From a virus: 64,000 nt of DNA. This document shows positions 1-64,000 of this stretch, in pieces. Location: positions 420 through 64,419 of the IMG/VR virus record IMGVR_UViG_3300037465_000347; one strand, 5' to 3'. The notes beneath the pieces were generated by a model that saw only the letters and a list, made by a program, of their open reading frames with translations, did not search any database and was not told where the DNA came from. The translations under genes and the position numbers were made by a program. The first letter of the stretch is position 1. Each line of letters starts with the position of its first letter.

Positions 1-128
1 GCTTTCTTGCCTCAAGATCATCGTTTTGGAAAATTTTCTGGTGCTGCCTTCCATAAAACATGTGCCGAAGCAGATCCTGATTTTACTAGCGTAGAGGATA
101 TGTTTTATGTGTACAAAAAAAATTATGG

Positions 129-347
129 ATGGCCGCCCAAGATTGGCCGCCTAAAAATGGAGTGGTGATCTATGAACAATGTTTTCCAGAAGACGGTACA
201 GAGCCAGAATGGTTCTGGGCAGACAAAGACATGTGGGAAGAATGGAATGCCGCTATGGAAAAGGCAGATCAAGAGCGGAAAGAGCGCATGGAAGAATCCC
301 TAAGAAGAGAGCGGGAAGCCTGGCGGTATGTGAGGGACGATAACTGA
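129..347 (+). CDS. Hypothetical protein, possibly the 3' part of a gene entering from the window edge
   Basis: ORF track. Frame 1 is open 1-168, and a 14-bp imperfect tandem duplication (130-143/144-157) encodes WPPK in both frames. Confidence 0.45.
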   Translation: MAAQDWPPKNGVVIYEQCFPEDGTEPEWFWADKDMWEEWNAAMEKADQERKERMEESLRREREAWRYVRDDN

Positions 348-513
348 AGAAGAATTACAAGTAATTATTGAAAAAATTAAAATTCGTTTAGCAACGCCTG
401 AAGGTCAGGAAGCTCTTAGAAAGGCGGCCGAAGCATCTGCTAAAAGAGTACAAGAGATAAAAGAAATGACTAAAATTCCTTGGGAATGGATGCATAGACC
501 AGTTGACTTCTAA
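340..513 (+). CDS. Small hypothetical protein (57 aa) with uncertain start (ATA, or ATG-TGA at 328)
   Basis: Open frame (I)TEEELQVIIEKIKIRLATPEGQEALRKAAEASAKRVQEIKEMTKIPWEWMHRPVDF fills the gap between genes; not in the ORF track. Confidence 0.45.
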   Translation: MTEEELQVIIEKIKIRLATPEGQEALRKAAEASAKRVQEIKEMTKIPWEWMHRPVDF

Positions 514-531
514 TAACTAAGCATTAACTGT

Positions 532-1113
532 ATGTTGCCCTCAAAGATTCGCAGAAGGATACTTAATAAATTGGCCCAAGGCGTCCTGGGCTCACCTGCG
601 TCTCCACCTTTCCCAACGTCTCCATCGTCTCCTAATGCTCCTACAGAGCCATCTTCGACCATGGCCATCAAGAAGGGGCTTTCACCACCAGCGTCCGATA
701 TGATGAATTTATCTATTGGATGGGGTACTTGGGCGCAATATATAAATAGTTTAGTAGGGAAATTGGATAAGGCCATTATTGCTGGAACAGAGCAAGAGTA
801 TAATTTTAAAGATTTGTTCCAAAATAGGTTTCCATCTGGGGTAGATACTAATTATGCTCCACCAAATCCTACAAAAGATCTTATTGCTTTTGGAAGGCTG
901 ATATTCCAAAATATTATGAATAGCGGTATCCCATTCACAGGGCCTCTAAAGAATGAAGATATGCGTGCTAAAGTGGATTTGCTATTAGGCGCCCCCGAAT
1001 TAACTAAACTGCAACAAGTTAATCAAGCTGGCCCGTTACGTAATGTAGATGTGGATTTGAGTACCGTTAGAAGCGATTTACTTACTCTGAAAAATTCTAT
1101 TCCAGTCACATAA
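532..1113 (+). CDS. Hypothetical protein with N-terminal KLAQ motif, putative virion/internal protein
   Basis: ORF track; ILNKLAQ followed by a Pro/Ser-rich linker. Confidence 0.6.
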   Translation: MLPSKIRRRILNKLAQGVLGSPASPPFPTSPSSPNAPTEPSSTMAIKKGLSPPASDMMNLSIGWGTWAQYINSLVGKLDKAIIAGTEQEYNFKDLFQNRFPSGVDTNYAPPNPTKDLIAFGRLIFQNIMNSGIPFTGPLKNEDMRAKVDLLLGAPELTKLQQVNQAGPLRNVDVDLSTVRSDLLTLKNSIPVT

Positions 1114-1177
1114 GTTATATTTTGTATTATGTCAAACAAAATTAAATAATGTCAAATAAGTTGATATATGTTTATAT

Positions 1178-60962: not shown

Positions 60963-60973
60963 GAGGCTATACT

Positions 60974-61687
60974 ATGAGAATTTCTGAACTATTGAATGCA
61001 ATGGCTTCCTGGCTAGAAAGTCCAAATAATGAAGCTATGTTGCTTGCAGAAGCTGATGAAAAGTGCATGCATATAGTAGCAGAGTCTTGTGTTCTGGCTG
61101 CCGCATTGCTCAAGAAGGCCGCTGATGAAGTAGATGTTCTTGAGCCACCTACTGAATCTGTTCTTACTCCAGAAGCTATTGAAGAGACTGCTGCATTAGC
61201 TACGGCTCTTGATCAGAGTGGTGACCCGCAACTTAAGAGAATGGCCTCTGTATTGGACGAGCTTCTTTTAACTATTGCTGCTCCACCAAATGCCTATGCT
61301 GAACGTAAAGATTTAGTAGATTCTAGGGCAGATGAAATCAGAAAAAAGTACGAAGAGCCACGTAAGGAATTGCATAAGGTAAATCACCTTGGACGTTCTG
61401 AAAAGGCTATTGAAAATAGTGGATTTACCAAAGAATATAAGATTCTAGAGGCTCCCCTAAGCTCTCGTTACTGTCCAGATCATCCTGGCGCTCAAATTGC
61501 ACGTGTAGGCGAACACGTATGGCAGTGTGAACTTGATAAAAAAACTTATAATTTTGAAACTGGCTTCGAATTAATTAACGGATCTAAAGTTCCTGGTGGA
61601 GACGTATCTCAACAGACTAACGGATTAAACACTCCATTCCATGCTATTTTTGATACGCGTGAAGGTAGACTAGGTTACAACAAGTGA
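60974..61687 (+). CDS. Hypothetical protein
   Basis: ORF track; GAGG SD; LSSRYCPDHPG motif. Confidence 0.7.
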   Translation: MRISELLNAMASWLESPNNEAMLLAEADEKCMHIVAESCVLAAALLKKAADEVDVLEPPTESVLTPEAIEETAALATALDQSGDPQLKRMASVLDELLLTIAAPPNAYAERKDLVDSRADEIRKKYEEPRKELHKVNHLGRSEKAIENSGFTKEYKILEAPLSSRYCPDHPGAQIARVGEHVWQCELDKKTYNFETGFELINGSKVPGGDVSQQTNGLNTPFHAIFDTREGRLGYNK

Positions 61688-61836
61688 TAGATGAGCACAT
61701 CTCAAAATTTCAAGAGGCCATAAGAGAGGTTTTGTCACAGTTAGATCCGGAGGCGGCTCAGCTTTTCTTAGACCGTTTCATGGAGAAATTGAATGAACAA
61801 AAACGCACTCAAGAAAATTCTGGAACATCCAGATAA
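61684..61836 (+). CDS. 50-aa minigene paralogous to the C-terminal helix of the next gene
   Basis: GTG start overlapping the upstream TGA; IDEHISKFQEAIREVLSQLDPEAAQLFLDRFMEK; not in the ORF track. Confidence 0.65.
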   Translation: MIDEHISKFQEAIREVLSQLDPEAAQLFLDRFMEKLNEQKRTQENSGTSR

Positions 61837-62551
61837 AGATGAAATCATCGGTAAACTAGTCTTAGATTATCCACCAAAAGAAATTCATGAATGGCTTGCT
61901 GGCAAATATACTAATGTTAGTGAAGCTAAGTTTGTTATTGCTGAAAAATCTATTAAAGTATTCAAAGATAATTATTTAGATGTCTATTCTATGATCCGTG
62001 AGGATATGATTAAGACCAAACAAGCTGTAGCTACCAGTACAGAAGAACAGTTAGAATTAGCTGTTAAGAATAATTCCACTTACAAAAGCAAAATGTTGGA
62101 ATTAGCTGGTAAAGAAATAGATGTTCGTCAAATGGTGGCTCATTTGTGCATTGCTATTGAAACACGTTTAGGTCAAGTATTTGATGAAATTCAAGAAGAC
62201 CCACGTAATATCAATACTAAAATTGATCGTGTTTTGATTGAATACGGTGAATTGTTAGGTAGTTTATTAGAAAAATATTATAAATTCACCGAGAATCCAG
62301 CAGACTTGGTCATTCAACACAACGTGACTTTGCAAGCAGTAGATCAGCATATTTCGGTATTTCATGATGTAATCCGAGATGTTTTGTCTCAGCTAGATTT
62401 AGAAAGCTCAATGCTATTTATGGAGCTTTTCCAAGAAAAAATGGCTAAATTAAAAGCGCCAGCTCACGAACAACCGCTTAACACAGATATGAAACTTGCT
62501 GAAGCAAAACTTCTCAACGAAACCATTAACAAAAAGTTGAATAATCAATAA
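61793..62551 (+). CDS. Hypothetical helical protein
   Basis: ORF track; GGAG SD. Confidence 0.7.
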   Translation: MNKNALKKILEHPDKDEIIGKLVLDYPPKEIHEWLAGKYTNVSEAKFVIAEKSIKVFKDNYLDVYSMIREDMIKTKQAVATSTEEQLELAVKNNSTYKSKMLELAGKEIDVRQMVAHLCIAIETRLGQVFDEIQEDPRNINTKIDRVLIEYGELLGSLLEKYYKFTENPADLVIQHNVTLQAVDQHISVFHDVIRDVLSQLDLESSMLFMELFQEKMAKLKAPAHEQPLNTDMKLAEAKLLNETINKKLNNQ

Positions 62552-64000
62552 TGCCAGAGAACAAACCTTCTAAAAAACCAATTATCGATATGCCTTCCAA
62601 AAAGCAATTGGCAAAGGTCGTTGGCCCATATTCTGATAAGGAGCTAGAGCTTACGCCAGAGATGGAAGAAAAGATGAAGAAGGACATGGAGTTTTTCGAT
62701 CTCTATGGTATTGATTATAGTAAATTTAAACCAGAGTTTCTTTCTTTTATCACTGATAAAAAAGCTTATCCTAACTATGACCAGTATCAGTATATTGCTG
62801 GCCAACATGATCTAAAAAAGTGGATGTATGCTCTTAAAAACATTCACTATAAGCAAAAAGCAGGATTTCCATATCGTGAGGCCATTAAGACTGCAACTCA
62901 GGGTTGGAATAAAATGGAAATTTACGATTTCTTAAATTGGTTAAGGTTCTACGGAGAGGGGACTCACATGAAATATAAGTTTGCACAAGTCTGGTACACC
63001 AATGATCAGCCAGGCTACTTCTTACATATCAAACCAGATCCTCCTAAAGAACCTGAGCCTCGCTATGATGCTAATGCTGTAAATGATGCTCGTGAAGAAG
63101 CTGAACGCAAAGAAGAAAAAAGACAAATCATTGAAAAGCAACGTGCAAAAATTATTGGCCGCTTAGACTCTGCTGAGAAGTTGTTGCGCTCTCAAGATGG
63201 CCAAGAATTTGCTGGTAAAGAGTTAGAAAACTTGATGGAAGCAATTTATGCTCTCAAGAAAAAAGTTCAACTTGTTAACAAATTAAGCATTTCTACTCGT
63301 TTATATGAAGACATGATTGTGCGTGAAGGAAACGTACTCAAGCGTAACGGTTTTACTAAAGCTGCAGAAATATTGTATTCTCTCGCTCAAACTCCAGGCG
63401 CCTCTGCTGAAGTGGCACAAGAACAGTCAGCTGGAGATGCAGTTCCGCCACCAGTCCCACCTCCACCACCAACTGATCCATCTGGTGCCCCAGGAGGTCT
63501 ACCAGCTACTCTGCCAACTACACCTAGTGTTCAAACAGAAAAGCCAACCTCAAAAGCTATAAATGAGTTCATTAGTAATATGAATGAAGGTAATAAAACT
63601 GATGCCACTAATTCTGAAGACGATCAATTAGAAGTAGAAGATTCAGAAGAGCCGTTGATGGTAACTGAGGCACAAATTACTCCTGCACCGCCTCCGCCAC
63701 CTGCTGTTTTGGAAGATATTCCAACTACAGACACCCCAGCTCCTGATAGAAATCCTCCAGCATTCATTCCAGAAGCCACGCCTAAAGCTAAAAAACCTTT
63801 AAAAGAAGAACCACTAGAAGTAACCGAAGAAGATTTACCTCCACCAGGTGGTGAGGGACCATCTACAGAAGGTAAACCTTTGGGCGGTGTAAGTTTAGAT
63901 AAAATTGATAACGTATTCAAAGATGTTTCAATGGAAGAAATTGTAGCCGAATTAGAAGATATTTCTACTTACTATAAAGTACGTGAAATGCCAAGACGAC
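62551..64000 (+). CDS. Large Pro/Glu-rich hypothetical protein running off the window end
   Basis: TAATG overlap; frame open to 64000 (MPENKPSKKP...); absent from the ORF track because it has no stop. Confidence 0.8.
   Translation, partial: MPENKPSKKPIIDMPSKKQLAKVVGPYSDKELELTPEMEEKMKKDMEFFDLYGIDYSKFKPEFLSFITDKKAYPNYDQYQYIAGQHDLKKWMYALKNIHYKQKAGFPYREAIKTATQGWNKMEIYDFLNWLRFYGEGTHMKYKFAQVWYTNDQPGYFLHIKPDPPKEPEPRYDANAVNDAREEAERKEEKRQIIEKQRAKIIGRLDSAEKLLRSQDGQEFAGKELENLMEAIYALKKKVQLVNKLSISTRLYEDMIVREGNVLKRNGFTKAAEILYSLAQTPGASAEVAQEQSAGDAVPPPVPPPPPTDPSGAPGGLPATLPTTPSVQTEKPTSKAINEFISNMNEGNKTDATNSEDDQLEVEDSEEPLMVTEAQITPAPPPPPAVLEDIPTTDTPAPDRNPPAFIPEATPKAKKPLKEEPLEVTEEDLPPPGGEGPSTEGKPLGGVSLDKIDNVFKDVSMEEIVAELEDISTYYKVREMPRR

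Follow-up and report, generated by a model that had tools for sequence, protein, structure and literature searches.

The 64,000 nucleotides analyzed here (the window; positions 420 to 64,419 of IMG/VR virus record IMGVR_UViG_3300037465_000347, nearly the whole of one 64,461-bp contig) belong to a virus that has almost given up TAG as a stop codon and still uses the standard genetic code (code 11). We put a probability of about 0.6 on the reading that this is a standard-code megaphage under a two-stop-codon regime, from which TAG stops were removed by selection. This reading is based on the stop codons of the window, on two amber suppressor tRNAs, tRNA(CUA), encoded in it, on eight related genomes, three of which encode their own release factor 2 (RF2), and on a gene for a Pth2-like peptidyl-tRNA hydrolase with a conserved TAG at its fourth codon.

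The gene set of the window and the large genes that served as landmarks are as follows.

1..64000: window gene set, ~95 plus-strand and ~5 minus-strand genes; ~65% end in TAA, ~35% in TGA, none in TAG
23180..24979 (+): topA, type IA topoisomerase, 599 amino acids, intact in code 11
34951..38372 (+): sbcD (398 amino acids) and sbcC (742 amino acids), intact in code 11
44064..47576 (+): dnaE, DNA polymerase III alpha subunit, 1170 amino acids, intact in code 11; marker for relatives and tree

With a non-overlapping model of open reading frames (ORFs) of at least 35 amino acids, which covers 94% of the window, the plus strand has 62 TAA, 33 TGA and 0 TAG stops (n = 95), and its 71 ORFs of at least 100 amino acids divide into 45 ending in TAA, 26 in TGA and 0 in TAG. 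Under code 11, 15 plus-strand ORFs of at least 40 amino acids do end in TAG, every one of them shorter than 90 amino acids; these were rejected as genes, since they lie out of frame within, or antisense to, longer ORFs, and three small minus-strand TAG-ended ORFs were dismissed on the same grounds in favor of better ORFs. Within the same window genes TAG makes up 22.7% of the out-of-frame stop triplets, and 0 of 71 against that share gives a binomial P of 1.1e-8. TGA, whose base composition is the same as that of TAG, supplies 35% of the window stops. The depletion of TAG is restricted to the stop position.

The original prediction, made from the letters of the window alone, had all real genes (about 90 ORFs) ending in TAA or TGA, the large genes uninterrupted in the standard code and just two in-frame TAGs. 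These statements stood up to the analysis: none of the 95 stops is TAG, dnaE, sbcC, sbcD and topA are whole under code 11, and both TAGs exist, at 5657 in the Pth2-like gene and at 5080 in a gene with an HD motif, with no other credible one in the window. The long window genes contain no in-frame TAG, and further candidates at 29037, 34066, 16906, 27429, 28523, 54627/54687, 4017 and 6408 turned out to be ordinary starts or intergenic. The same prediction called TAG "vacated", which is right insofar as TAG is almost unused both as stop and as sense codon, but goes too far in that TAG still accounts for 1.6-3.6% of the stops in close relatives and for 10% in a deeper member; the word is to be read as "almost vacated".

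No terminal repeats were found when we looked for them on the window contig, which is therefore a fragment, probably about one-fifth (15-25%) of an uncultured environmental megaphage whose full genome is 4-7 times larger. Its genes lie nearly all on the plus strand and include dnaE, sbcCD, topA, recA and a trigger-factor homolog, and many ORFs gave no family match in profile scans. DnaE relatives with up to 94% identity were found in IMG/VR on contigs of 198-481 kb; the megaphage relatives measure 390-480 kb and have about 60 tRNAs each. A DnaE profile search returned at least 80 contigs of the clade; many measure 350-470 kb, and some have direct terminal repeats or a CheckV completeness of 100%. 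Among GenBank phages, a DNA search with dnaE gave no match, and a protein search with DnaE gave identities of at most 31% and no cultured relative. In G6, one of the relatives described below, dnaE (L013:12427-13978) carries a frame-breaking interruption of about 1.5 kb, possibly an intron or a homing-endonuclease insertion.

The genomes compared were the window and eight relatives (G1, G2, G4, G6, G7, G12, G13 and G15), nine in total, which span DnaE identities of 40-94% to the window. G2, G4, G6 and G12 are 92-100% complete as estimated by CheckV, G1 (267 kb) and G7 are partial contigs, and G13 is complete, with terminal repeats; G13 and G15 are the more distant outgroups. G1 and G2 (481 kb) both have a DnaE 89-94% identical to that of the window. 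Stop shares were compared over ORFs of at least 100 amino acids, and positions 420-481 kb of G2 were left out as a likely foreign or chimeric flank. The guanine-plus-cytosine (GC) content of this last ~60 kb of G2 (IMGVR_UViG_3300028558_000791) is 49-55%, compared with 41-44% in the rest of the record; its genes are short and TAG stops are numerous. Flanking host sequence or a chimeric assembly is the probable origin, and the record is labeled a provirus in IMG/VR. The resulting series is given below, with DnaE identity to the window, tRNA(CUA) genes, RF2 and share of TAG among stops.

G15: DnaE 40%; tRNA(CUA) none; RF2 no; TAG 26.5%
G13: DnaE 52%; tRNA(CUA) none; RF2 no; TAG 17.1%
G12: DnaE 58%; tRNA(CUA) one; RF2 no; TAG 16.9%
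G4: DnaE 76%; tRNA(CUA) one; RF2 yes; TAG 9.9%
G6: DnaE 70%; tRNA(CUA) one; RF2 yes; TAG 3.4%
G1 (partial): DnaE 94%; tRNA(CUA) two; RF2 not on contig; TAG 3.6%
G7 (partial): DnaE 89%; tRNA(CUA) two; RF2 not on contig; TAG 2.4%
G2: DnaE 89%; tRNA(CUA) two; RF2 yes; TAG 1.6%
Window: tRNA(CUA) two; RF2 not on contig; TAG 0%

The out-of-frame share of TAG is 17-26% in all nine genomes, and the change is confined to the stop position. As TAG keeps its share out of frame, its loss from the stops is not the work of mutation pressure. The loss is also not tied to low GC content, as genomes with 38-43% GC carry less TAG than a member with 33% GC. When reciprocal-best orthologs with aligned C termini were matched, TAG ended 0 of 39 genes in the window versus 10 of 39 in G13 (Fisher P = 0.001), and 0 of 111 in G2 versus 22 of 111 in G13 (P = 1.5e-7); where an outgroup gene ends in TAG, its ortholog in the depleted genomes has TAA or TGA instead. 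Relatives without suppressors do not show the absence of TAG stops described in the original prediction, with 17% in G13 and 27% in G15; the refuting condition that the prediction had set for itself thus came out in its favor. In the DnaE tree, G4, G6, the window, G1, G2 and G7 form one group (support 89/99); G12, G13 and a further relative sampled at one locus, G11, fall outside this depleted group, and G15 is distant.

The suppressor tRNAs predicted earlier were recovered as two adjacent genes.

6757..6830 (+): tRNA(CUA) no. 1, amber suppressor (ARAGORN; Rfam tRNA, 47.2 bits)
6841..6913 (+): tRNA(CUA) no. 2, amber suppressor (ARAGORN; Rfam tRNA, 65.7 bits)

Both form a cloverleaf with U33 and have the 7-nt anticodon loop CUCUAAA, on unrelated bodies: the first has C1-G72, G73, a 4-nt variable loop and an encoded CCA, and the second has G1-C72, A73 and no encoded CCA. 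The ortholog of the first in G1 keeps CUA and shows paired changes, judged by eye, in the anticodon and T stems. For the second, an alignment of the window, G1 and G2 shows compensatory changes in 5 of 19 pairs with CUA invariant, and G7 also has an ortholog with CUA. With Rfam scores of 47-66 bits, compensatory stem changes and CUA kept, the presence of amber suppressor tRNAs is well founded; they are presumed to be expressed and charged and to suppress UAG.

One or two tRNA(CUA) genes each occur in G1 (176544-176700), G2 (172924-173255), G7 (50092-51584), G4 (58637), G6 (333703) and G12 (374731), and one in a locus fetched from another relative, G3. At least three unrelated tRNA bodies with CUA occupy one syntenic locus across these relatives. 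The first tRNA(CUA) is of the C1-G72/G73 type in the window and G1 and of a U1-A72/G73 type in G2 and G7, to which the single one of G4 also belongs; the identity elements of the U1-A72/G73 type give a hint of glutamine, and the TAG sites themselves fall in leaders and not on conserved residues. Such a pattern implies that the suppressors have been replaced over time at the locus, and three unrelated CUA bodies at one place would point to sustained selection for amber reading rather than to the decay of an accidental mutant tRNA. Among other ARAGORN calls, which are unverified, are a tRNA with the anticodon UUA (ochre-reading) at 50073-50149 of G2 and tRNAs with 8-nt anticodon loops (ttaa, tttt) at 41327-41403 and 43345-43419 of G1; a true ochre suppressor would fit oddly with about 60% TAA stops.

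RF2 reads UAA and UGA, not UAG. A class-I release factor with SPF and GGQ motifs, RF2, is encoded by G2, G4 and G6. The proteins of G2 and G4 score 383-410 bits against the NCBIfam model TIGR00020 (prfB; cut-off 370), and that of G6 was identified by PF00472, by its SPF/GGQ motifs and by 55% identity to the G2 protein. No RF2 was found in G12, G13 or G15. A 359-amino-acid protein with several DNA-binding-like repeats adjoins the RF2 gene of G6.

A further piece of evidence is the Pth2-like gene, whose TAG lies within a short leader.

5648..5998 (+): Pth2-like peptidyl-tRNA hydrolase gene (PF01981, 33.9 bits versus a cut-off of 23)

The gene starts behind a GGAG Shine-Dalgarno sequence with ATG5648 TGT CTA TAG (5657-5659) and continues with GTT AAA GAA GGC GAT AAG CTT TAT GTT. 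Its PF01981 match covers profile positions 2-104 of 115 and begins directly after the TAG; Pth2 chains in the PDB match the window protein with E = 0.003-0.005, and residue 6 past the TAG aligns with residue 2 of Methanocaldococcus jannaschii Pth2 (chain 2zv3_A). As the match does not reach the NCBIfam equivalog cut-offs, we term the gene "Pth2-like". Between the TAG and the first beta-strand no canonical start codon occurs, and a start at the first one downstream, TTG5702, would cost the protein beta-strand 1. Ten genomes have kept the leader plus TAG, as MCL-TAG in the window, G1, G2, G7 and G3, MS-TAG in G4, G11 and G12, and MSIS-TAG in G6, followed by GTT in the window, G1, G2 and G7, ATT in G3, G4 and G11, and ATG in G12 and G6. 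A search of 30 genomes found the gene in 14 of 30 records; for most matches the open frame does not extend beyond the match itself, as expected if a stop immediately precedes it. The gene sits just upstream of tRNA(CUA) in the window, G1, G2, G3, G4, G6, G7 and G12, that is, in all flanks that could be scanned; the 3.3-kb G11 locus contains no tRNA(CUA).

This arrangement is most simply read as UAG read-through by the suppressor encoded next to it, with reinitiation at GTT as a weak alternative, and codon 4 of the Pth2-like gene is the only convincing sense TAG. Pth2-like homologs with 40-54% identity are present in metagenomic records of uncultured phages of 462-735 kb (LR756500-LR756504, LR745208), in Mycobacterium cluster C phages, where they are annotated as peptidyl tRNA hydrolase, and in Prevotella (Lak) phages.

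A similar TAG is found in the gene that overlaps the start of the Pth2-like gene.

5053..5060 (+): GATATATA element, seven bases 5' of ATG5068 (GATATATA-N7-ATG start signal)
5068..5664 (+): HD-motif gene, starting ATG5068 AGC TAT CTA TAG (5080-5082), with ATG5101 six codons past the TAG

G1 and G2 conserve the HD leader and its TAG amid changes at third codon positions, and the gene has no Pfam or NCBIfam match. For this TAG, a read-through-gated start and a four-codon upstream ORF with reinitiation are both plausible. The GATATATA signal (GATATAT-N8-ATG) has 8 matches in the window versus 0.24 expected, all on the plus strand, at 1163, 4011, 5053, 6927, 9242, 9723, 19523 and 54741; apart from the HD copy at 5053, six of the seven place an ORF start codon at the expected ATG. 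We regard it as a candidate promoter or leaderless-start signal. The copies at 5053 and at 6927, just past the suppressor tRNAs, bracket a putative operon of the HD gene, the Pth2-like gene, three small genes and the two tRNA(CUA) genes, for which a promoter and terminator scan was uninformative. The three small genes (5995-6750, +) lie between the Pth2-like gene and the suppressors with overlapping stops and starts, and two are Cys-rich. The proposal that TAG has so far only a regulatory use agrees with these findings, as the only sense-like TAGs stand at the fourth or fifth codon of two genes in the suppressor operon and look regulatory.

This operon belongs to a larger translation module.

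2699..3128 (+): cluster of four tRNA-Thr (ARAGORN / Rfam listing of tRNAs)
3632..3982 (+): phage tmRNA (transfer-messenger RNA; Rfam RF00023, 104.2 bits versus a gathering score of 47)
9163..9239 (+): tRNA-Arg(CCU), end of the module (tRNA calls)

G1, G2, G7 and G4 share the syntenic order of Thr cluster, tRNA(CUA) and Arg(CCU). The tmRNA, which ARAGORN misses, sits in this module with the four tRNA-Thr, the HD and Pth2-like genes, the two suppressors and tRNA-Arg(CCU). Its tag frame, read from the sequence, is ANDNAFAMAA and ends in TGA; the tag ORF of Escherichia coli tmRNA ends in tandem TAA. A trigger-factor homolog with Trigger_N, FKBP_C and Trigger_C domains is encoded at 41408-42658 (+), and the three together, trigger factor, tmRNA and Pth2-like gene, suggest a phage toolkit for protein quality and ribosome rescue.

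According to these data, we propose the following mechanism. The suppressor tRNAs would make UAG leaky in the infected cell, in competition with host release factor 1 (RF1), and UAA and UGA would be terminated well by the phage's own RF2, as encoded by the near-complete relatives. Host genes with a TAG stop would presumably be affected as well. Selection would then swap TAG stops in phage genes for TAA or TGA. TAG would be kept as a read-through gate at codon 4 of the Pth2-like gene and probably at codon 5 of the HD gene, and, given the shared putative operon, the gated proteins would be produced only once the suppressors work. The tmRNA and Pth2 might clear the stalled ribosomes and peptidyl-tRNA that result. 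On the order of events the original prediction is not supported: it implied that the stops were purged first and the suppressors acquired later, but G12, outside the depleted clade, has tRNA(CUA) and a TAG-led Pth2-like gene at 17% TAG stops, so the suppressor appears to predate the purge.

Several observations weigh against this reading. G12 has a suppressor with ordinary TAG use, and G4 has a suppressor and RF2 yet 10% TAG stops, which means that the machinery alone does not force the purge. The genomes behind the correlation are few and phylogenetically dependent; the DnaE tree is moderately resolved, with three inner branches open and a midpoint root, and the ancestral TAG share of the depleted clade is either 3% or 10%. 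RF2 is absent from the 64-kb window contig, which is only a partial genome, as are the G1 and G7 contigs. The pooled TAG share of the three closest relatives is 2.4%, and 0 of 95 at that rate has P = 0.09; the window is thus not separable from its relatives and gives no proof that the whole genome lacks TAG. A switch to a host whose RF1 activity differs may also have contributed. Weak additional support for selection against read-through comes from the in-frame backup stops, which are nearer after TAG-ended genes (clade pooled, median 7 versus 11-14 codons, P = 0.0009), but this result is confounded by GC content and reaches only P = 0.054 in G4 alone.

The original prediction also saw a transition toward reassignment, and recoding was therefore sought in the relatives as well as in the window. 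Code-11 coding density is 0.89-0.94 across the window and relatives and 0.95-0.998 in large structural-gene regions, and reading TAG as sense raises it by at most 0.01 (code 11 versus TAG as sense: window 0.892/0.902, G2 0.928/0.938, G1 0.926/0.925, G4 0.903/0.904, G6 0.924/0.923), which gives no sign of recoding. No sense TAG was found in the bulk genes of the nine genomes (four of them 92-100% complete, two of them outgroups), including the structural regions, where density reaches 0.998. When TAG was written as X and all proteins were compared with one another, no TAG aligned within any conserved protein, and no recoded close relative was found among the nine genomes examined of the at least 80 clade contigs. 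A general search for starts of the type "short leader plus TAG" gave no enrichment over TAA and TGA controls; the Pth2-like gene and possibly the HD gene are exceptions, and no genome-wide leader-TAG habit was seen. The code of the lineage is the standard one, also in its late genes, and the supposed transition toward reassignment finds no support.

Candidates that came up in these searches were rejected. Nearly all of the 551 TAG-containing ORFs in a greedy TAG-as-sense set are spurious alternative frames or lie over tRNA genes. Cross-genome "conserved X" positions at G1 136720, G2 159906 and G1 38711 are upstream non-coding TAGs with the true ATG downstream. The G4 continuations past TAG at 49239 and 321842 are separate genes, the Pfam domains stopping before or beginning after the TAG, and that at 148497 has no Pfam match and no support for a fused gene.

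These results bear directly on the other explanations. A hidden code 15, in which the window would represent early, standard-code genes and the late genes, off the contig, would use sense TAG, would agree with recoded phages that hold replication genes in the standard code and have tRNA(CUA) and RF2, and with a contig of only ~15-25% of the genome; we consider it very improbable, because G1, G2 and the 92-100% complete G2, G4, G6 and G12 have densities of 0.90-0.998 under code 11, structural regions too, and no conserved gene interrupted by TAG was found. Still less can be said for chance or base composition alone: TAA is favored in AT-rich genomes, but the deficit has P = 1e-8 when tested on the out-of-frame share and about 2e-8 on the outgroup share of 17%, and matched orthologs differ significantly, so that this explanation is refuted.

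Two further explanations deserve more weight, though both seem unlikely to us. In neutral codon capture, TAG would have been lost from stops by mutational bias or drift, with suppressors following and reassignment now under way; TAG nearly unused, suppressors present and sense use confined to one or two sites would all fit, and this is the route proposed for gut phages by Borges et al. It has difficulty with the out-of-frame TAG share of 17-26% in nine genomes and with TGA at 35% of stops, with G12 outside the depleted clade holding a suppressor and a TAG-led Pth2 gene at 17% TAG, and with the lack of a recoded member in nine genomes at DnaE identities of 40-94%; nor do we see a codon lost by directional mutation pressure before decoding changed, as Osawa and Jukes would have it. 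Alternatively, the phage may mirror hosts with weak RF1 or rare TAG stops, its suppressors serving otherwise. Phage stop-codon use often tracks the host, and the TAG share does vary among clade members as it would with differing hosts, but about 60 tRNAs and an own RF2 leave little reliance on host decoding, the depletion coincides with phage RF2 on the tree, and a share of 0-3% is lower even than the roughly 7% of E. coli. Selection against read-through remains our preferred reading. We may go one step further, tentatively, and picture a stable two-stop regime in a deep and widespread environmental megaphage clade with RF2 and several amber suppressors, in which UAG would be a dedicated regulatory read-through codon that gates the phage's enzymes for ribosome and tRNA rescue, termination of UAG-ended host genes would be corrupted, by accident or by design, and the condition would be a stable end state, not a step to code 15; this is possible, but we give it clearly less credence than the removal of TAG stops by selection itself.

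Models of code change are divided between a codon that is emptied and then captured and an ambiguous decoding that comes first and drives the emptying. The clade offers a natural, datable and testable series for this question, from no suppressor (17-27% TAG stops) through suppressor only (17%) to suppressor plus RF2 (10% to 0%), all along which TAG is not generally reassigned and one conserved TAG-gated gene is retained. This suggests that phage decoding factors can reshape stop-codon use without a change of code. What is new here is that TAG stops were lost at the level of a clade and that this loss is associated with RF2.

Borges et al. (bioRxiv 10.1101/2021.08.26.457843) described a model of "depletion, then suppressor, then recoding" for stop-recoded gut phages, and reported that RF2 goes with TAG suppression in Lak and Agate phages. 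The lineage studied here resembles their standard-code state in having the standard code, TAG rarer than TGA as a stop, a phage suppressor tRNA and RF2 alongside. It combines the standard code, TAG as the rarest stop and a suppressor, as a pre-recoding state would, and this state, which resembles a pre-recoding one, spans a deep divergence. It differs from their phages in being an environmental clade of 390-480 kb rather than from the gut, in that the suppressor seems to precede the depletion, in that TAG loss is not tied to low GC, and in that no recoded relative was found in the nine genomes.

Huge phages of more than 200 kb with dozens of tRNAs, tmRNA and release factors are known (Al-Shayeb et al. 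2020, PMC7162821), and this clade is likewise equipped; the passages of that paper considered here do not connect suppressor tRNA plus RF2 with a disappearance of TAG stops from standard-code genomes. The gate at the Pth2-like gene recalls the autoregulation of prfB (RF2) by an early in-frame UGA, since in both a termination-related gene carries an early stop that reports the state of termination. In prfB a +1 frameshift occurs at CUU UGA, whereas here UAG would be read through by a co-encoded suppressor and the gated gene is a Pth2-like hydrolase. With the TAG-recoded (code 15) jumbo and crAss-like phages (PMC9523058), the clade shares tRNA(CUA), RF2 (in the relatives) and TAA and TGA as working stops, but unlike them it has no TAG within structural or lysis genes and a high density under code 11, with a gain of at most 0.01. 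In practice, tRNA(CUA) and RF2 in a phage genome are by themselves no ground for a code 15 annotation.

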